A DNA stretch of 63,364 nt, filler included. It is 3 parts of 3 records of this genome, joined end to end, with 100 filler letters (N's around TTAATTAATTAA, not from the genome) between each part and the next. Parts side by side here need not be neighbours in the genome. Positions count along the whole stretch, not along the records: positions 1 to 30,268 come from SRR22947725_2432; 2 more parts are not named here. One strand, 5' to 3'. The notes beneath the pieces are model-generated. The model was not told the DNA's origin, made no database searches, and saw nothing but the letters and a program-made list of their open reading frames with translations. Positions 27,297 to 56,299 of this stretch are shown piece after piece. Made by a program: the position numbers and the translations under genes. Every line of letters begins with the position of its first letter. Position 1 is the stretch's first letter.

Positions 27297-27896
27297 CTAT
27301 AGGTTACTTACATTTTTTGATAAATATTCTGCAATACCATCTGCATTTTCTTTGATTCCTTCATCACCCTTGTTCCATCCAGCTGGACATACTTCTCCAT
27401 TTTCAGTATGAAAATCAAGTGCATCGACCATTCTGAGCATTTCATCTACATTCCTACCTAATGGATGATCATTAACTACTTGATGACGAACAACAAAATT
27501 CTCATCTATTAAAAAAGATGCTCTTAATGCTGTTCCTTCAGGGTGTTCAATTCCATATGAGCTCATAATTGAATGATTCATATCTGAAACTAGTGGAAAG
27601 TCTATTGCTCCTATTCCACCATCATTAATGTTAGTATTTCGCCAAGCGTTATGAGTATGTTTAGAATCTATTGAGACTCCAATAAGCATTGTTTCTCTCT
27701 CAGCAAAAGCTTTGACTCTTTTGTGATGGGCCAAAATCTCAGAAGGACAAACAAATGTAAAGTCTAGTGGGTAGAAAAAAAGTACTATTTTTTGACCTTT
27801 AAATTTTGATAGTTGAAAATCTTCAACAATACTTCCATCTGCAAGAATAGCGGATGAACTAAAATCTGGTGCTTCTTTAGTAACCAATACGCTCAA
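27297..27896 (-). CDS. ahpC: 2-Cys peroxiredoxin (AhpC/TSA)
   Basis: FYPLDFTFVCPSE and EVCPAGW; TTG start with AGGAGAG RBS. Confidence 0.92.
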   Translation of the reverse strand: MSVLVTKEAPDFSSSAILADGSIVEDFQLSKFKGQKIVLFFYPLDFTFVCPSEILAHHKRVKAFAERETMLIGVSIDSKHTHNAWRNTNINDGGIGAIDFPLVSDMNHSIMSSYGIEHPEGTALRASFLIDENFVVRHQVVNDHPLGRNVDEMLRMVDALDFHTENGEVCPAGWNKGDEGIKENADGIAEYLSKNVSNL

Positions 27897-28101
27897 AGTA
27901 CTCTCCTATTTAATGTTCTCGAGCTTTTGTAGTAAGATGCTAATTCTTTATTGAAGTCATTTTTTACTTAATCTAAAATAATTTGTCCAATAATTGTCAT
28001 TGGAATACCGTACTGTCTCATCGATATAAAGTTCAAACGATTCGTTTTTTTTAGTAAATATATTTTGTAGCTATACCAAAGATTCATAATTAATTTTTTA
28101 T

Positions 28102-28136
28102 AAAAAAAGCCCTATGGAAGGAGGAAGACATAGGGC
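28102..28136 (-). terminator. Intrinsic terminator with a CU-rich loop
   Basis: Minus strand GCCCTATG-TCTTCCTCCTTC-CATAGGGC-TTTTTTT. Confidence 0.8.
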
Positions 28137-28342
28137 CAATTAATTACAAATAGAGCTACTAAAGGAAGTAAATAACTTTTATAGGTAATTAAAATATCAC
28201 TTATTTAAAATCTCCTTTGATATTTTGTTTCATCATAGTTCGGAGGGCTATTATGAAACAGTTGAAATGATTAAAAAAAACATCAGATTGAGGAAGTCAG
28301 TTTTGTTAATAATCATTTCAAACTTTCTTAATTTCTTATTAA
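28102..28342 (-). ncRNA. Putative Fur-repressed small RNA of about 240 nt with five tandem hairpins
   Basis: Promoter and Fur box at the 5' end, five consecutive inverted repeats, U-tract terminator at the 3' end, no long ORF; ends are inferred. Confidence 0.62.
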
Positions 28343-28367
28343 ATGATAATGATACTCATTATCATTT
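28341..28367. promoter_or_regulatory. Fur box
   Basis: GATAATGATACTCATTATC (28345-28363) matches the consensus GATAATGATAATCATTATC at 18/19; it sits within a perfect 12-bp inverted repeat AAATGATAATGA-TAC-TCATTATCATTT. Confidence 0.9.
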
Positions 28368-28377
28368 GTGTTTGCAA
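28349..28377 (-). promoter_or_regulatory. Sigma70-type promoter overlapped by the Fur box
   Basis: Minus strand TTGCAA (28377-28372), 17-nt spacer, TATCAT (28354-28349). Confidence 0.65.
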
Positions 28378-28474
28378 CCTTTTTTTAAAAAAAATTAATA
28401 ATTTTTATTGAAGTCAATAAATACGGGCAAGATAACCTAAAATAGTTGTAATGAATCTATTAACACTGACCTAA

Positions 28475-33330: not shown

Positions 33331-36300
33331 TTAATTCTCTATCTTGAAGCCATTAGCAGGAACGGTAAAAGTCTTACCATCACTATAACTTACTGTAATA
33401 GGGTTGTTTTCATAATTATATGCTACATATGTAGTAACCCCATTTTTCTCAAAGGCGACTGCAGTAGGATGATCTGATGTTAATTCACCTGTTCCGGTCT
33501 GTATATGGCCAAGAGCATTAAAGGTGTGTATCCAATGATAGGTATGAGCTTTTGATTCTCCAGCCTCATTCTCATAGAGAGATACACTTTCATAGTCATT
33601 AATTGCTGCTTCACCATCAACCATAGCTATAAGATTCCACCAAAGATCTCTCCATTCATCATCAGTTTGCAAGCCTGAAGGTAATTTATTTGAGGATTCG
33701 GCTAAACCTAAATCTATATAATCCATCATATAATCCTTGTACTGACTAACATGGAAAATTAAAGGATTAGATGGCAAGCCTTGTATACCTAAAATATGAG
33801 CATACTTAGGACTAAACCAAGTGGAGAAGTCAGCACCACTACTCCATATAATTGACGTGGTTATATTTGGATATCCGTTAATAAAGTTATCATAATCATC
33901 GCCTAAGCCATTATAGCCATCTATATTATTCCAATATTGCCAATAGGCGGTTGAAGTGCTTGCGTGGAGGTAAATACCCCTATTAACTAAGTCATTATCA
34001 TCAACAATAAGACCGTATAAAATAAGTGCGCCATATGAGTTAGCTGCTTCTGATGTAGACTCATTGTTATTACCTTGCAAAGCATCAGCCTTTCCGTCAG
34101 CCCAAGAAAAACCATTTGCAGGATCAAAATTTCTATAATTTGGGAACATATCGTCAGTGTCTACGCCAGCATAATCTCTAATTAATAACTCAACCATAGG
34201 GCCATATTTATCATCCCCACACCATGATTTGTCAGTTCTGCATATCTCAGCAGCAGCTCTAACAAAGTAGCCGTAATGGAAGTGATGGTCAGCAAGCCTA
34301 GTATGAGAGCCATAGGCCTCTTCCATACCCAGTAAAGTATCCCAAGTATCATCGTAGACAAAATACCTTTCCTCATCTAACTCACCATTTGTTTCAGCAG
34401 TAAACCAATCTTCAAGTTCTGATTTTAACCAATTGGTTAAACGATTTGATTCTTCAGTTAGCCCTATTGATTTTGAGATAGCAATAAGCTCTGCAACTTT
34501 TCCATAGGCTTTGCCGGACCAATACGTGTCGTTTGTAATAGATCTATCAATCCAAACATTTTCACCCTGATCAACAAAGTCTTTTACAAGTTGAGTAAGT
34601 TTTGACACTTCAAAAGTATTATCAATTGAAGGTAATGTAGGCAAGACGCCTACATAAGGCATCGTGTAATTAAAAGAGTCCCTCTCTGCAAACTTAATAA
34701 CGCCTCTAGCGCTTCTAATTTTATAGTTAGAAGTTTGATTATTAGATGAAAACTTCCAATGCATTGGATGTAAACCAATAATGGTGTTAACTAGATTGCC
34801 ATCTTTTCCATGATACTCATGTGTTACAGTAACCGAATTATCAGACCTATCAACTTCGTAATTAATATCAACAGCTGAGATTACATTTCTTGATTTATTT
34901 ATAAAATAATCAGACATTGCATCACCTGGAATACCTGAAGACTGGGGAATATAGGTTACTGTAAATTCTCCAGTGCTATTGTTAATACTAATATTGTTGC
35001 TTGTTGGATTTGTGAATGTTGTGACCCCTTCGCCTGTGATAATAAAGTTATTTCTATTACCGGCAACATCCGTCCAAACTCCAAGACTATCGCCTTGTTC
35101 ATAGAAAACACCTTTTTCGCCACCATCTTCTCTTAGCGTTTTTAAAATTGCATTTCCATCAAAAACCTTAAAAAACACATATGGGGAGCCATGTACAAAA
35201 GTTGCCTCCATGACGTCGGTATCCCCAGACATCCATAGCGTAGTAACTGAGCCATCACTATAGTCTTTTAAGTATGCATTCATATTTGTATGCTTACTAT
35301 TAGCAATTGCTATACCATCAAAAACCTCAGTAAACCATTCGGGAGCTGCATATTGTGGGTAACAATTACCGCATAAACCACCTGCAAGTCTGAACCCACC
35401 TGGGATTCCCATCAACCTAACTCCAGCAGTGCTTAGTCTTGCTCTTATTGGGTCAGGAGAAACGTGAGCTGGTGACACAGAAGTAGGATCACCAATTTTT
35501 GTTTCGCCAACAAAAGGAATAGACCCCCACCATCGATGTGTTGCAATTTTTTTTGAAGCTGCAGGCTCTACAACCTGAGGCATAACTTTAACTGGTGCGC
35601 TTATAGGTTTTCCGGTTGAGTTATTACAGCTACTAATAAATGATTCAACAACACCCGCATTCCATATCCAAGTTGCAGCATCGTTACTACCACATTTATA
35701 ACTTTCTATATTTATTGCTGTAGAAATATTACCTGCTCCATAATTGATTATTTCATACTCACCAGTATTACCTGATCCGCCGCCGCCTCCATTATTCGGT
35801 CCAGAGGGAGGTGTTGCTCCCTCTTTAATACCTGTATATCTAACATTATCTATTTGATAAACAAGATTTTCACCAGTTTGAAAAGATGGGAAGAAAACCA
35901 TGGGCACGGTAATATTTGATAGATTTAAAGCTCCGCTTTGAGTTAATGCTGAAACAGGGAAATCTATTGATTCCCATTGCCCGTTAGCACTAATATCATT
36001 TACAGGTAACTCTCCAGAATTCTGAGTATCACTTTCAACTTTTACAAGAAAGCCATTAGGTAAATTGTCTGTACCTTTGTTAACAACCTTTATATCAAAT
36101 GATAAAGACCCTTCAGAATAATCGCTGAGGTTTACCCCTGCAGTAGGTCCCACAACTAATCCAGCATGGCCTGCATTAGATGTATATCTAACTTCTAGCA
36201 CATCTCCTCTGTCGGAACCCGAATCAACATAAGAGTAATCTACACTTTGACATGAATCTGATTTGCATGACTGATAACCATTGAGCTCATCAAAAAAGAA

Positions 36301-37071
36301 TAGAGAACTTTCTCCACCCCATATAGTAGCAACAGAACCTTCATCTATGATTTGAACATCGAGATTGGATGTATTTTCATCTACATCGGTAACAACGACA
36401 GTAATATCTTGTGTATCCGAATCTGTTCCATCGCTAGCAGTTACAGTTTCTGTATAGGTAGATTTAGTTTCATAGTCTGGAGGTGATATAAAAGTTAAAA
36501 CCCCTCCTGATGTTATAGCTAATTCAGAACCGCTAACTTGAAAGGTAATGGAGTCTCCATCAGCATCTGTTGCAGTTACAGTTCCTATAGCGGTTTGATT
36601 TTCAGCTGCTGTAAAAGTATTAGATGAAGTAATAACTGGAGCGCTATTCTCATCAACATCAGTAACTGATACAACGATCCCTACCGAACCAGTAGCCGAA
36701 CCATCTGATGCAACAACTGTAATAGAGTAATTATTATCACCACTTGCACTTCCTGGATTCTCAAAGTCAGGAGCTGTATTGAAACTTAAAACTCCTGTGC
36801 CTGAATCTATAGTAATTAGTGAGGTATCATCTCCAGTCAAGGAGTATGTAAGAGTATCTCCGTCAGCATCTGTTGCTGTAACTGTTCCAATAGCAGTTGT
36901 ATTTTCTGCAACTGCAATTGTCCCTACATTAGCAAATGTTGGTGCATTATTTGCAGGTGGTGTGGGTGGGGTTGGTGGGGTTGGAGTAGATCCTCCGCCG
37001 CCTCCGCCGCCTCCGCCACAAGATGAAATAATAAAAATTGAAGTTATCAAAAGTGATGATCTAAGATTCAT
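33331..37071 (-). CDS. Multidomain lipoprotein endo-beta-1,3-glucanase, GH81 family, with two cadherin-like repeats and a putative carbohydrate-binding module
   Basis: Lipobox ISSC, poly-Gly and Pro/Thr linker, repeated AEN.TAIGTVTATDADGD, DTYWSGK, DHHFHYGYF, NNESTSEA catalytic motif. Confidence 0.88.
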   Translation of the reverse strand: MNLRSSLLITSIFIISSCGGGGGGGGGSTPTPPTPPTPPANNAPTFANVGTIAVAENTTAIGTVTATDADGDTLTYSLTGDDTSLITIDSGTGVLSFNTAPDFENPGSASGDNNYSITVVASDGSATGSVGIVVSVTDVDENSAPVITSSNTFTAAENQTAIGTVTATDADGDSITFQVSGSELAITSGGVLTFISPPDYETKSTYTETVTASDGTDSDTQDITVVVTDVDENTSNLDVQIIDEGSVATIWGGESSLFFFDELNGYQSCKSDSCQSVDYSYVDSGSDRGDVLEVRYTSNAGHAGLVVGPTAGVNLSDYSEGSLSFDIKVVNKGTDNLPNGFLVKVESDTQNSGELPVNDISANGQWESIDFPVSALTQSGALNLSNITVPMVFFPSFQTGENLVYQIDNVRYTGIKEGATPPSGPNNGGGGGSGNTGEYEIINYGAGNISTAINIESYKCGSNDAATWIWNAGVVESFISSCNNSTGKPISAPVKVMPQVVEPAASKKIATHRWWGSIPFVGETKIGDPTSVSPAHVSPDPIRARLSTAGVRLMGIPGGFRLAGGLCGNCYPQYAAPEWFTEVFDGIAIANSKHTNMNAYLKDYSDGSVTTLWMSGDTDVMEATFVHGSPYVFFKVFDGNAILKTLREDGGEKGVFYEQGDSLGVWTDVAGNRNNFIITGEGVTTFTNPTSNNISINNSTGEFTVTYIPQSSGIPGDAMSDYFINKSRNVISAVDINYEVDRSDNSVTVTHEYHGKDGNLVNTIIGLHPMHWKFSSNNQTSNYKIRSARGVIKFAERDSFNYTMPYVGVLPTLPSIDNTFEVSKLTQLVKDFVDQGENVWIDRSITNDTYWSGKAYGKVAELIAISKSIGLTEESNRLTNWLKSELEDWFTAETNGELDEERYFVYDDTWDTLLGMEEAYGSHTRLADHHFHYGYFVRAAAEICRTDKSWCGDDKYGPMVELLIRDYAGVDTDDMFPNYRNFDPANGFSWADGKADALQGNNNESTSEAANSYGALILYGLIVDDNDLVNRGIYLHASTSTAYWQYWNNIDGYNGLGDDYDNFINGYPNITTSIIWSSGADFSTWFSPKYAHILGIQGLPSNPLIFHVSQYKDYMMDYIDLGLAESSNKLPSGLQTDDEWRDLWWNLIAMVDGEAAINDYESVSLYENEAGESKAHTYHWIHTFNALGHIQTGTGELTSDHPTAVAFEKNGVTTYVAYNYENNPITVSYSDGKTFTVPANGFKIEN

Positions 37072-47594: not shown

Positions 47595-50500
47595 TTAGAA
47601 TTTATATTTAATTCCTAACTGAGCTCTCCAGATACTCTGAGTAGCTGATATTCTGTCTTCAAATGGATTGTCGATATCATATCTATAAGCATATCCGCTA
47701 TAGTCATACTTATTATCAACAATTCTTAAATCCATAACATCTAGCCTACCTGAGTAGTAACCAAACTTAACAACACCTTTTTTGTCATCAATTAAGTTAA
47801 GTAGATTCTCTATACCTAAAGTTATAACCACTTCATCATCAGCTCTAAATCCAGGAAGTATCTGAGTAACTTTTACATCAAGTGATGACTGCCATGGATA
47901 GTTGAAAGACCCTCTTGGCTGAATAGAGCCAGCATATCTTTCAAGACCATATGTATTATGAAGAAGGTTTATTACCTCTGCTGCTCTAGCTGAAGCTTCA
48001 AAAGATCCCTCATCTCCACACTTATAAGACCAGCAAATTAATGGGTCGTTAGTTCCAGTAGGTATATATAGTAAAGCAGAGCTGTCATCATTTAAATTAT
48101 AATCATAACCAAAGGCTTTTGATCCATAATCGCTTGGAGAACCTGTAAATGTATCAAATGAAAGGTATCCAGGTAAACCTGATTTTCTCTCGAAGATCAT
48201 TGAGAAAGTTGTTGGTTTATCTTCACCAAAGAAATAATGCTTAGATGTCACAGTAGCGAGGAATCTATGTTCAGTTTCATAGATTGATCTCATAGGCTTT
48301 CTGTTGTTGTAATCAATAGCTCCAACTTTTCCGTAGTTAGAGTTTGATGTTGAAGAAGTCATACCACTTAGCTCATCAATATCTTGAGCTGTGTAACTCA
48401 TAACAAGTCTGCCGTCACCATCATTAAAGGTTCTTGCAAATGTTGCAGACATAACCTCTCTTTCACCACAACAATCATTGTAGAGACCGGCTTTGTATGT
48501 TCTTCTACCTGTCATATTATAAATAGGACGCCCATCAGGAGCTGTAGCAGTAGGAACAGTAGGATCAAAGCCATCTAATGGATAACCAGTATCGATTACT
48601 TTGTATAAAGCTTCCTCTTGATTTGAATTTAAGTAAGTTAAAGTCATATCCCAATTTTCTGATAGCTGTCTTTCGTATGTGACGTTTAAGATTTTTGATT
48701 CAGGCCACTCAAAATTAGGTGATATGAAATCAATCTTAGCACTCGTTAAAGGAGCATTGGCAATAGCTTGCTGAACACAACCTGGAAGGCCAACTCCTGC
48801 AGCAGCAAGTGGGTTACAGCCAGCAGCAGCATAATCAGAATCATAAGCTGAAACTCTTACGCCATCGTTTGTATATGCATTAGAAATCCATACTGCAGGT
48901 AATTTAGCAGAGTAAGTACCGTAAGTAATATTTAATGAACTTACATCATCAATAAGCAAATCAGCACCAAATCTATAATTAAGAAGACTTGTTCCATCAA
49001 TACCCGCATTAGCAAAACCATATTCAGCTTCAAAATCTGGATTGGCAGCTGGAGCATCGTCTGAAGAGTACTCGTCGTATCTTAGACCTGCGGTTAAAGT
49101 TAATCTATCTGAAACAGTTATTTCATCTTGTATATACATTGATGAAAGACTGTATTCAAAATTAGCAGCTGCATCTGCAGGATTACCTGTTTTTGCATTA
49201 TTTGCAAAGAAAGAACTTGCATTACCATTATTAAAGTCATCTAAAGAATCAAATTCCCATTGACCATCTTGAGCAACGATAAATAAGTTATAAATATCCC
49301 AGCTAGTATTTTCATAACCTGCTGTAATTTTATGATTATCTGCATAGTAAATTGCTTTTAACTTTAAAAAGTCTGTCGTAGTGGCGAGCTCATTTGCTGA
49401 TCTATAAATATCAGCTCCGATATAAACTTCATTACCATATGCATTATCTATGTATAAATTAGGAACGTTCTGACCTGCTGGAGAATTTTGGCCAGTAGTT
49501 GTTTCCTTGCTTGAATAGTTAACTTCTGTAGAAAGGTTGTCTGACCAATTTGAGATTAATAAAACACTATTGGTCTCTGTTTTTTCTGTTTTAAGGTAAG
49601 AGGCAGAAGTAAAGTAAAACGAATCAAAGCCACTGTCAGCTCTCAATGCGTCACCTTCAGCTAATTTGTAGTCATATTGCAATCTATGATTTTCATCAAC
49701 AATATAATCAAGTCTTAAAGTAACATTTTCTTGAGTAGACTCTGTTGTATCTGCATAAGAAAGAGGATCAAAACCATATAGGTCTATGGTAGTTTGTCTT
49801 ATTTCAGCAACTTGAGCAGTTGTTATTGATTGCTCAATCTGAGCATTTGAACCGGCTGGTCCAAAAAGAACAGGGTTTGTTAGAACACTTTCTTCATATG
49901 ATGTAAAGAAGAATGCTTTGTCTTGTATTATTGGTCCACCAAACGTGAAACTTGTAGCAGTATCTTCTTTATCAAAGGAATAATCTCTACCATCGATCTT
50001 ATCTCCATAGAACTGATCTCCTCTATCATAGAAAGCTGCACTTCCACTAAACTCGTTAGTACCACCTTTAGTAATGAATTCTATAACACCACCCCTAAAA
50101 TTAGAGTACTCAACAGATGCTGGAGCAACTTTAATGCTCATTTGCTCAATAGCATCTAGATTTAATGGACTTCTTTGAGAAGGATAGCCATTACCATTCA
50201 AACCAAAATCATCATTGAATGAGACGCCATCAACTTTAATATCATTAGATCTTGGATGTGCTCCACCGATACTTATTGCCTCATCTCCATCCTCAGCATC
50301 ATCCAAGGATACCAAAGGATTAAGTCTCATAAGATCTTTTATATCACGTGTAATTGAAGGTGTATTTTGAATAGTCTCAGCATCAATGGTAGTTGTATAA
50401 CCTTGTGCTGTCATTTGTTCAATTTTTTGACCTACAACAACAACATCATCAACATCACCAACTGAAACTAACGCAAAAGAAACTCTTCCAGTTTCTCCAA

Positions 50501-50783
50501 CTTGAAGGTATGTTTCTACAGAATCAGGGAGTAGTCCATTAGCCGATACTTTGATCTTATAAGGCCCACCAGGTCTAAGACCAGCAGCTCTATATCTTCC
50601 ATTTTCAGAAGTTACCTTGCTAACTTTAGTATTAGTTGGCACATAAGTGATCTCAACCGTTGCACCACCTACCGCATCACCACCATTAGAAACAACACCA
50701 GTTATGTCTGAAGTTAATTCTTGGGTAAAAGCAAGCGGGGAAATGAAAAGTGAGAAAAGAAAAATTCTAAACGTCTTATTCAT
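47595..50783 (-). CDS. TonB-dependent receptor (Oar-like, N-terminal carboxypeptidase-regulatory-like domain)
   Basis: Signal peptide, GLRPGGPY, IKVDG...NDDFGL plug, TKGGTNEFSGS, C-terminal aromatic YKF. Confidence 0.92.
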   Translation of the reverse strand: MNKTFRIFLFSLFISPLAFTQELTSDITGVVSNGGDAVGGATVEITYVPTNTKVSKVTSENGRYRAAGLRPGGPYKIKVSANGLLPDSVETYLQVGETGRVSFALVSVGDVDDVVVVGQKIEQMTAQGYTTTIDAETIQNTPSITRDIKDLMRLNPLVSLDDAEDGDEAISIGGAHPRSNDIKVDGVSFNDDFGLNGNGYPSQRSPLNLDAIEQMSIKVAPASVEYSNFRGGVIEFITKGGTNEFSGSAAFYDRGDQFYGDKIDGRDYSFDKEDTATSFTFGGPIIQDKAFFFTSYEESVLTNPVLFGPAGSNAQIEQSITTAQVAEIRQTTIDLYGFDPLSYADTTESTQENVTLRLDYIVDENHRLQYDYKLAEGDALRADSGFDSFYFTSASYLKTEKTETNSVLLISNWSDNLSTEVNYSSKETTTGQNSPAGQNVPNLYIDNAYGNEVYIGADIYRSANELATTTDFLKLKAIYYADNHKITAGYENTSWDIYNLFIVAQDGQWEFDSLDDFNNGNASSFFANNAKTGNPADAAANFEYSLSSMYIQDEITVSDRLTLTAGLRYDEYSSDDAPAANPDFEAEYGFANAGIDGTSLLNYRFGADLLIDDVSSLNITYGTYSAKLPAVWISNAYTNDGVRVSAYDSDYAAAGCNPLAAAGVGLPGCVQQAIANAPLTSAKIDFISPNFEWPESKILNVTYERQLSENWDMTLTYLNSNQEEALYKVIDTGYPLDGFDPTVPTATAPDGRPIYNMTGRRTYKAGLYNDCCGEREVMSATFARTFNDGDGRLVMSYTAQDIDELSGMTSSTSNSNYGKVGAIDYNNRKPMRSIYETEHRFLATVTSKHYFFGEDKPTTFSMIFERKSGLPGYLSFDTFTGSPSDYGSKAFGYDYNLNDDSSALLYIPTGTNDPLICWSYKCGDEGSFEASARAAEVINLLHNTYGLERYAGSIQPRGSFNYPWQSSLDVKVTQILPGFRADDEVVITLGIENLLNLIDDKKGVVKFGYYSGRLDVMDLRIVDNKYDYSGYAYRYDIDNPFEDRISATQSIWRAQLGIKYKF

Positions 50784-55502: not shown

Positions 55503-55602
55503 NNNNNNNNNNNNNNNNNNNNNNNNNNNNNNNNNNNNNNNNNNNNTTAATTAATTAANNNNNNNNNNNNNNNNNNNNNNNNNNNNNNNNNNNNNNNNNN
55601 NN
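55503..55602. other. Artificial contig-joining spacer
   Basis: N-run, TTAATTAATTAA, N-run. Confidence 0.98.
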
Positions 55603-56299
55603 CAACACCTACAAACATTTCAACAAAATCAGAACCAGAAATCGTAAAAAAAGGAACACCAGCTTCACCCGCAACAGCTTTAGCTAAAAGCGTTTTACCT
55701 GTTCCAGGAGGACCAACAAGTAGAACTCCTTTTGGTATTTTACCGCCTAATTTTTGAAATTTAGCTGGATCTTTTAAAAATTCTACAACCTCCTCCAGCT
55801 CTGATTTAGCTTCATCTATGCCTGCCACATCTTTAAATGTAACCTTATCTCTATGCTCTGTTAAAAGTTTAGCTTTAGATTTTCCAAAACCCATAGCACC
55901 CTTTGAACCACCTTGCATTTGTTTCATAAAGAAAATCCATACACCAATAAAAAGAAGCATAGGAAACCATGATATTAAAACAGAGAATATTCCAGGCATT
56001 CCGTTTTCGATTGGCTCAGAAGTAACTTTAATTCCCTTTTCAGACAATTTGTTAGCTAATTCTTCTTCTTTAGGAATTAATGAATAAAAAGGAACACCAC
56101 TACTAGATGCTCCAGAAATTTTATCACCCTGAATACTAACTTCTCTTACTTCACCAGCATTAACTCTTGCTAAAAAATCAGAGTAAGCTATTACATTAGT
56201 AGTATTCTGAGAAGACGATCCTTGAAACACGTTAAAGATTGCAACTAATACAAGAGAGATAATTACCCAAACTGCAATATTTTTTCCGAAATTATTCAT
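55603..56299 (-). CDS. ftsH: ATP-dependent metalloprotease FtsH, N-terminal part (truncated)
   Basis: Two TM segments, [32 protein letters not shown]. Confidence 0.97.

Follow-up and report, generated by a model that had tools for sequence, protein, structure and literature searches.

What is encoded between ahpC and a metal-efflux gene of the CDF family in a marine gammaproteobacterium, where a near-consensus Fur box stands in front of a row of inverted repeats? We studied this question computationally in a window of 63,364 nucleotides (nt), the whole stretch of DNA that was analysed, which consists of three parts joined end to end with 100 filler letters between neighbouring parts; the region of interest, positions 28,102 to 28,377, lies in the part that comes from SRR22947725_2432 (positions 1 to 30,268). 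We show that this region holds a conserved, structured non-coding unit with a Fur box, exposed loops complementary to Shine-Dalgarno sequences, an intrinsic terminator and a linked open reading frame (ORF). As to what the unit does, we lean, by a modest measure of confidence, towards a Fur-repressed, Hfq-independent small regulatory RNA (sRNA) of ~240 nt, whose loops would pair at ribosome-binding sites during iron limitation.

A conserved RNA unit under a Fur box

The unit is read on the minus strand, and the parts that make it up are as follows.

28372..28377, minus strand: −35 hexamer TTGCAA, from a promoter scan; TTGCAA in 14 of 16 homologous loci, TTGTAA in one and TTGCAT in one
28349..28354, minus strand: −10 hexamer TATCAT, within the Fur box; unchanged in all 16 loci
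28345..28363, no strand assigned: Fur box (palindrome), 18 of 19 positions as in the classical consensus; overlaps the −10 hexamer
28102..28342, minus strand: predicted non-coding RNA of ~240 nt; 5′ end deduced from the −10 hexamer, 3′ end set at the U-tract
28262..28321, minus strand: hairpin 1, with 12-bp arms; loop with CUUCCUCA at 28296-28289; stem sequence varies between clades
28226..28260, minus strand: hairpin 2; loop with CCCUCCG at 28247-28241, invariant but for one C/U base; one stem pair changes from CG to UA
28191..28226, minus strand: hairpin 3; loop with an invariant Shine-Dalgarno-like AAAGGAG at 28218-28212
28141..28191, minus strand: hairpin 4; loop with ACUUCCUUU at 28169-28161, unchanged in all 16 homologues; both partners change in 4 of 17 stem pairs
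28102..28137, minus strand: intrinsic terminator; 9-bp G+C-rich stem, 12-nt loop UCUUCCUCCUUC containing CCUCCUU, and U7

The promoter, in the ahpC-CDF intergenic region, is composed of TTGCAA at 28377-28372 and TATCAT at 28354-28349 with a spacer of 17 (scan score, 9 of 12 matches), and an A/T tract precedes the −35 hexamer on the minus strand. Sites of this kind occur in this AT-rich region at the rate expected by chance (6 found, 6.1 expected). The Fur box at 28345-28363 differs from GATAATGATAATCATTATC by one mismatch on the plus strand (18/19) and by two on the minus strand; it is the sole site with at most three mismatches in the 63-kb window, where 0.04 would be expected, and none of 100 shuffles yielded two matches. 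Box and promoter are both kept in relatives, with box scores of 15 to 18 out of 19 in all 16 homologous loci. No site in G008, a complete genome of 1.71 Mb with a 98% identical copy of the RNA, fits the consensus as well as the orthologous box, which alone reaches 17/19 (six sites have 16/19 and 29 have 15/19). The fur gene is present in each of the five related genomes searched, and near-identical boxes elsewhere in the genus, seen as short hits in a first DNA search, precede operons for ABC transporters of a solute-binding family that includes ferric-iron binders. A tblastn search of the 63-kb window returned no fur homologue; in G008 the fur gene (C1:528979-529338) lies 12.6 kb from the RNA gene, so that local gene order differs between close relatives.

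Both the minimum-free-energy and the centroid folds of 28102-28345(-) contain the five hairpins, and the same architecture is adopted by 16 of 16 homologues, each folded separately. Four loops carry CU-rich motifs complementary to Shine-Dalgarno sequences (CUUCCUCA, CCCUCCG, ACUUCCUUU and, in the terminator loop, CUUCCUCCUU); CUUCCU is common to three of them, and the fourth has CCCUCC. Across the 16 homologues, the mean unpaired probability of these motifs is 0.63-0.98 in loop 1, 0.85-0.93 in loop 2, 0.88-0.96 in loop 4 and 0.98-1.0 in the terminator loop, and that of the whole RNA is 0.37-0.45. The CU-rich loops, invariant or nearly so, are the most conserved parts of the unit, and hairpins 1 and 4 have stems that vary from clade to clade; AUAUCAAAGGAG of hairpin 3 is likewise unchanged in all 16 homologues. 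The terminator stem (28137-28129 with 28116-28108, then U7 at 28108-28102) pairs in 97.6% of the cells of the alignment, with one change from CG to UA in G062. The AAAGGAG of hairpin 3 (28212-28218, minus strand) is complementary to a stretch of loop 4 (UUCCUUU) and to one in the terminator loop (CUCCUU) and, judging from this complementarity, could serve as a loop-loop contact or as a decoy.

An earlier note on this DNA, made from the letters alone, had described a promoter TTGCAA-N17-TATCAT covered by an 18/19 Fur box, five adjacent inverted repeats (the first with 12-bp arms, the last followed by U7), four CU-rich loops and no long ORF, and all of these are borne out: the promoter and box are present on the minus strand where it had placed them, the repeats are reproduced by both folds, the loop sequences are as it gave them, and there is no minus-strand ORF of at least 30 amino acids (aa) inside the unit. 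It had also made the conservation of stems and loops in relatives a point on which its proposal would stand or fall, and relatives do keep the loops and the pairing of the stems. In a model-guided alignment, 92.6% of cells pair, compared with 30-45% when the partners are slid, and 7 of 45 pairs change on both sides, a number that 2 of 500 shuffles reach. RNAalifold, run on an alignment made with MAFFT, gave a partly different structure without hairpin 1 and with only one compensatory pair; we prefer the five-hairpin model because each homologue adopts five hairpins when folded alone. In the RNAalifold structure, the 3′ arm of hairpin 1, AAUCAUUUC (28264-28272), pairs with AAGUGAU of hairpin 3 (28193-28199) and not with its own 5′ arm, which suggests a possible alternative conformation, as far as this model goes.

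The choice of strand draws on several features in combination. On the minus strand the folding energy has z = −2.83 (1 of 200 shuffles folds as well), and the plus strand folds better (z = −4.53), so folding energy alone cannot assign the strand; the excess of G-U over A-C cells (37 vs 9), together with the U-tract and the promoter, favours the minus strand. Three coding candidates were considered and rejected. A 57-aa ORF on the plus strand (28225-28398) matches nothing in Pfam, shows no bias by codon position (756/831/836) and is broken in relatives by frame-breaking length differences and stops. A tiny ORF behind the internal AAAGGAG (GUG AUA UUU UAA) varies in length and frame, and G066 is without the GUG. 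Finally, a minus-strand peptide starting ATG ATG AAA has its frame shifted by indels.

The relatives in which the unit was found belong to Pseudothioglobus, with genomes of 1.7 Mb, as expected from the earlier note's assignment to a streamlined marine gammaproteobacterium. By DNA search, 12 of 37 genomes of the genus were seen to carry a full-length homologue, with identities of 75-98%, and a covariance model that covers hairpins 2-5 (the 3′ 165 positions) gave 15 strong matches, of 132.6-192.2 bits, across the 43 species genomes of the genus that we surveyed; six of the 15 genomes that are at least 90% complete carry such a match. Applied with Infernal's stricter filters to 18 other genera of the family (79 genomes), the model found no match. 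Two weak matches of 32-35 bits, without a Fur box (L046, at G022:C214:14539-14696, and L047, at G002:C74:62514-62664), mark a different RNA-like unit with CU-rich loops, a strong terminator and another conserved promoter (TTGCAAATACCC...TAGGATAT), which may be a sister family under other control. A metagenome pattern scan, in which 80 loci of 118 stretches were examined, yielded only five real cases, all of them close variants, as the pattern was too loose.

Conservation is higher in the unit than in its flanks. The ahpC-CDF location given in the earlier note holds for the window, but the unit is tied to neither neighbour: of the first 12 loci, three have no ahpC downstream and two no CDF gene upstream, and the RNA unit is thus independent of both genes. 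One genome illustrates the reverse situation. In G012 (L320, C30:10154-13288, 1540-1720 on the minus strand), the CDF gene is kept, and neither Fur box nor RNA is present; the small downstream ORF has lost its beginning, and a degraded remnant with stops is all that is left of it. Since box, RNA and ORF start are missing together, the module has been lost as a whole.

The unit matches no Rfam family. In the whole window no Rfam family reached its gathering score, and between 27850 and 28520, at E values up to 10, there were eight chance-level hits, none of them to a Fur-sRNA family, RyhB (RF00057), PrrF, NrrF and FsrA included, in line with the earlier note, which had recognised neither RyhB nor PrrF. 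The top hit, to rli24, has 21.8 bits against a gathering score of 100 and lies on the opposite strand, and a hit to csRNA is at chance level too.

A candidate iron-stress regulator and its possible targets

The model that we favour would work as follows. The promoter is of the sigma-70 type, with its −10 hexamer and start under the Fur box, and would drive transcription of the minus strand. With enough iron, iron-bound Fur would block it; in iron shortage, the RNA would be made, fold into four hairpins plus a terminator hairpin and display CU-rich anti-Shine-Dalgarno motifs in four of its loops. These loops would base-pair in trans, without Hfq, with the ribosome-binding sites of several mRNAs and lower their translation. 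The small basic protein encoded downstream is probably expressed by read-through of this Fur-controlled transcription, and it may act together with the RNA.

Two features of the host are relevant to this model. Hfq (searched as PF17209, with the control detected in Escherichia coli), CsrA and ProQ families were found in none of five related genomes, four of them complete, with positive controls detected for each. The 3′ end of the 16S rRNA of G008 is canonical (CACCUCCUUA), so that its Shine-Dalgarno sites would be AGGAG-like and the loops able to pair with ordinary ones. At the level of public sequencing data, 19 runs contain half or more of the words sampled from 28090-28400, and ten of these, from six studies, are recorded as RNA, with 0.60-0.83 of the sampled words; their presence is consistent with an expressed RNA, and is no proof of it.

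Several results weigh against this reading, most of them from the prediction of targets. For each loop, duplex energies at 1741 start regions of G008 were no better than in windows inside genes, and the top-ranked hits are functionally mixed. When G008 was compared with G062 (693 orthologue pairs, drawn from G008 and 53% of G062), sites at or below −12 kcal/mol in both genomes numbered 9 at starts and 40 in the control for loop 1, 15 and 29 for loop 2, and 22 and 30 for loop 5; loop 4, with 7 and 2, is a weak exception. Because start regions are not enriched, we claim no regulon. Five candidate targets would fit an iron theme, namely, nuoG, a rubrerythrin-like gene, an Rrf2/IscR-like gene, ilvD and bolA, all of them predictions only. 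The best of these, nuoG, has in its start region AUUGAGGAAGU, an 11-nt complement of loop 1. The site doubles as the coding end of nuoF, which accounts for its conservation, and a test for covariation with loop 1 was negative in the clade in which that loop diverges. In G008 there is no match to SdhC or to an Fe-SOD family, leuC ranks 1027th or lower of 1741, an aconitase-like gene ranks 201-288 of 1741, and searches for the aconitase and ferritin families gave nothing clear. The iron specificity of the ABC transporters behind similar Fur boxes, moreover, was not borne out, as their NCBIfam hits lie below the cut-offs.

The remaining points on that side concern the structure and the gene order. 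Covariation is modest, which we ascribe to the youth of the family: 22 of 45 pairs never vary in the model-guided alignment, and in the MAFFT alignment 5 of 60 pairs change on both sides, which 65 of 500 shuffles reach. The structure model was derived from the same sequences, and both covariation counts therefore lean towards structure. Furthermore, an ORF follows the terminator at once, so that the RNA could be its leader, an alternative taken up below. The earlier note's proposal of an iron-sparing sRNA with several seed loops is thus upheld as far as the conserved non-coding RNA and its exposed loops are concerned, and not in its iron-sparing regulon, for which predictions were no better than controls.

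One match outside the iron theme deserves mention on its own. A proteorhodopsin-like gene (Bac_rhodopsin, G008:C1:1628354-1629061) is among the strongest start matches of the terminator loop in both genomes, with −17.9 and −16.4 kcal/mol, a prediction only.

The linked small basic protein and rival explanations

Directly behind the terminator lies a further gene on the same strand.

27893..28087, minus strand: small basic-protein ORF, starting 20 nt past the terminator hairpin match; 64 codons in relatives, with an in-frame TAA at codon 40 here

All 16 loci have an ORF of 59-64 codons whose start lies 15-48 nt beyond the terminator, and it is open in 15 of them, the window copy alone being interrupted (TAA at codon 40, 27970-27968). 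Differences between its copies concentrate at third codon positions, both overall (1566 vs 697 and 442) and in codons 1-22 (638 vs 365 and 312), and judged by this codon pattern the ORF is a real gene under purifying selection. Of the 43 genomes, the 15 that have the ORF are precisely those that have the RNA. The RNA is always linked to this small basic-protein gene directly downstream, an observation that is new here. The predicted protein has an isoelectric point of 10.3, with 14 K+R and 3 D+E; it has no Pfam family, and its relatives form 30 clusters that are confined to the lineage, the named ones all being hypothetical proteins. An AlphaFold model (mean predicted local distance difference test score, 86) is mainly helical, with helices at 2-14, 20-25 and 30-54 and a short C-terminal one; structure searches gave no Foldseek match, a best VIA Z of 5.0 and no usable ESM Atlas match. 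In the window, the small ORF ends in a stop that overlaps the TTG with which ahpC starts. We also considered a type I toxin-antitoxin system and rejected it, since the protein is basic and hydrophilic and the RNA lies upstream in the same orientation, not antisense.

How RNA and protein might belong together can be answered in more than one way. A bolder form of the favoured model, which we hold to be doubtful, joins the two in one Fur-controlled riboregulatory module, in which the 64-aa basic three-helix protein would recognise the CUUCCU loops as a dedicated partner or chaperone, and the pair would take the part that RyhB and Hfq play in other bacteria, in a gammaproteobacterium from which Hfq, ProQ and CsrA have been lost. 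No Shine-Dalgarno sequence is visible before the ATG of the small ORF, and under such a module the mRNA of the small protein would for this reason escape an anti-Shine-Dalgarno RNA.

The same absence can also be read in another way, that is, with the RNA acting mainly in cis on the small gene (and on ahpC where it follows) as a 5′ leader or attenuator. Fur would then control the operon, the terminator would set the share of transcription that passes through, and the loops would serve for folding or for binding a factor in cis. We consider this explanation unlikely, although the gene order speaks for it: the short distance between terminator and ORF in every locus leaves no room for a promoter of the ORF's own, RNA and ORF share their 15 genomes and disappeared together from G012, and the RNAalifold structure, in which AAGUGAU is the partner of hairpin 1's 3′ arm, would offer an alternative fold. 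Some public gene calls, however, start the small ORF at Met23, which would leave room for a separate promoter. The terminator, for its part, is canonical and conserved, with its 9-bp G+C-rich stem and U7, and we found no alternative pairing that disrupts it. The pattern of conservation also fits a leader poorly, as loops of 9-10 nt that stay invariant while stems drift are typical of seed regions, and a leader would have no need of four anti-Shine-Dalgarno copies.

Rather improbable, in our view, is a third explanation, in which the CUUCCU-type loops bind the small basic protein or some other factor, and the RNA acts as a scaffold or sponge in the manner of CsrB, which binds CsrA via repeated GGA loops. 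The recurrence of CUUCCU in three loops, beside CCCUCC in the fourth, would suit such a role, as would an adjacent protein that is very basic, under purifying selection, confined to the lineage and in strict co-occurrence with the RNA. Against this role, the protein has no Pfam family, no Foldseek match and a best Z of 5.0, and in the window the ORF has an in-frame stop while the RNA is intact. Moreover, the loop motifs are exact anti-Shine-Dalgarno sequences, for which base pairing is the simpler account.

That the locus holds no functional RNA, and merely chance AT-rich inverted repeats beside a Fur box that serves the divergent CDF gene, is very improbable: the box does lie 112-130 nt upstream of the CDF start, hexamers like those of a promoter are as frequent here as chance predicts and the plus strand folds at least as well as the minus strand, but box, promoter and RNA are kept at the two of 12 loci where the CDF gene is no neighbour, G012 keeps the CDF gene without box and RNA, the unit is conserved beyond its flanks with constant loops and co-varying stems, and RNA runs hold the sequence.

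Elsewhere in the window, we noted three further ORFs, all on the minus strand. One of 250 aa (55547-56299), with ftsK directly after it, covers no more of FtsH than the initial ~230 residues (profile positions 2-229 of 644), which may reflect a truncation of ftsH, a frameshift or a join made in assembly. Two long ones, of 1246 aa (33331-37071) and 1062 aa (47595-50783), have little or no NCBIfam annotation.

Analogous systems and biological meaning

With a predicted Fur box overlapping its promoter, a structured and non-coding unit that ends in an intrinsic terminator, and four CU-rich motifs in single-stranded loops in 16 of 16 homologues, comparable to the C-rich loop regions of IsrR, the RNA is best placed in the known class of Fur-repressed regulatory sRNAs. 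Unusual are the linked protein and a host that lacks Hfq, ProQ and CsrA. Its nearest counterparts among described systems are best taken as analogues and not as homologues. IsrR of Staphylococcus aureus, as described in the available part of PMC9410917, is Fur-repressed and Hfq-independent and pairs at Shine-Dalgarno sites through C-rich single-stranded regions in its loops. From the same excerpt of PMC9410917, the likeness extends to Fur boxes at the promoter, several stem-loops, a Rho-independent terminator and conserved single-stranded loop regions, and the IsrR stems, too, are reported there to be conserved in primary sequence with little covariation. Of a relation in sequence there is nevertheless no sign at the level of Rfam, where no family matched, and the two RNAs come from distant taxa, Bacillota and Gammaproteobacteria, respectively; IsrR has 174 nt compared to ~240 nt here, and where it has C runs, the present RNA has CU-rich motifs (CUUCCU) in four loops, an internal AAAGGAG and an attached small-protein gene.

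The second comparison concerns the protein. FsrA of Bacillus subtilis, an sRNA that Fur regulates, inhibits the translation of mRNAs for iron enzymes (PMC7430163 and PMC9410917, in the parts available), and it cooperates with small basic proteins under Fur regulation (FbpA, FbpB and FbpC), of which FbpB has 48 aa and which are presented there as proposed RNA chaperones. The likeness lies in the gene for a basic protein of 59-64 aa that adjoins the RNA here and co-occurs with it. FsrA, on the other hand, is 84 nt long, and those parts of the sources do not place the fbp genes next to it; the protein found here has no Pfam family, and its linkage suggests that it may act with the RNA.

RyhB and PrrF come from the same class of bacteria and share the Fur box over the promoter and the intrinsic terminator. 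They have one main seed, not several anti-Shine-Dalgarno loops, and their covariance models find no match here at E values up to 10. Both depend on Hfq (PMC9410917, in the part available), whereas Hfq is found in none of the five genomes searched here. Closer in its mode of pairing is RoxS/RsaE, in which several C-rich loops target Shine-Dalgarno regions independently of Hfq (PMC4409812, in the portion available). It is unrelated in sequence to the present RNA, the csRNA hit here being at chance level. RoxS/RsaE is regulated by nitric oxide and redox state (through ResD and Rex), not by Fur.

The setting gives the question some weight. Iron limits growth over large ocean areas, and the SUP05/Arctic96BD-19 group, which includes Pseudothioglobus, is an abundant marine lineage. 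We found no literature on a regulatory sRNA in the Thioglobus/SUP05 group, in a search that left most subscription journals outside. If the favoured reading is true, the locus would encode a Fur-controlled riboregulator in a gammaproteobacterium without Hfq, ProQ and CsrA, and the multi-loop anti-Shine-Dalgarno solution of Bacillota would have arisen in Pseudomonadota as well. The linked small basic protein provides a testable case of a dedicated sRNA partner. For the ecology of the group, the RNA would, on the same condition, offer a sequence marker of iron stress that can be read in marine metatranscriptomes.

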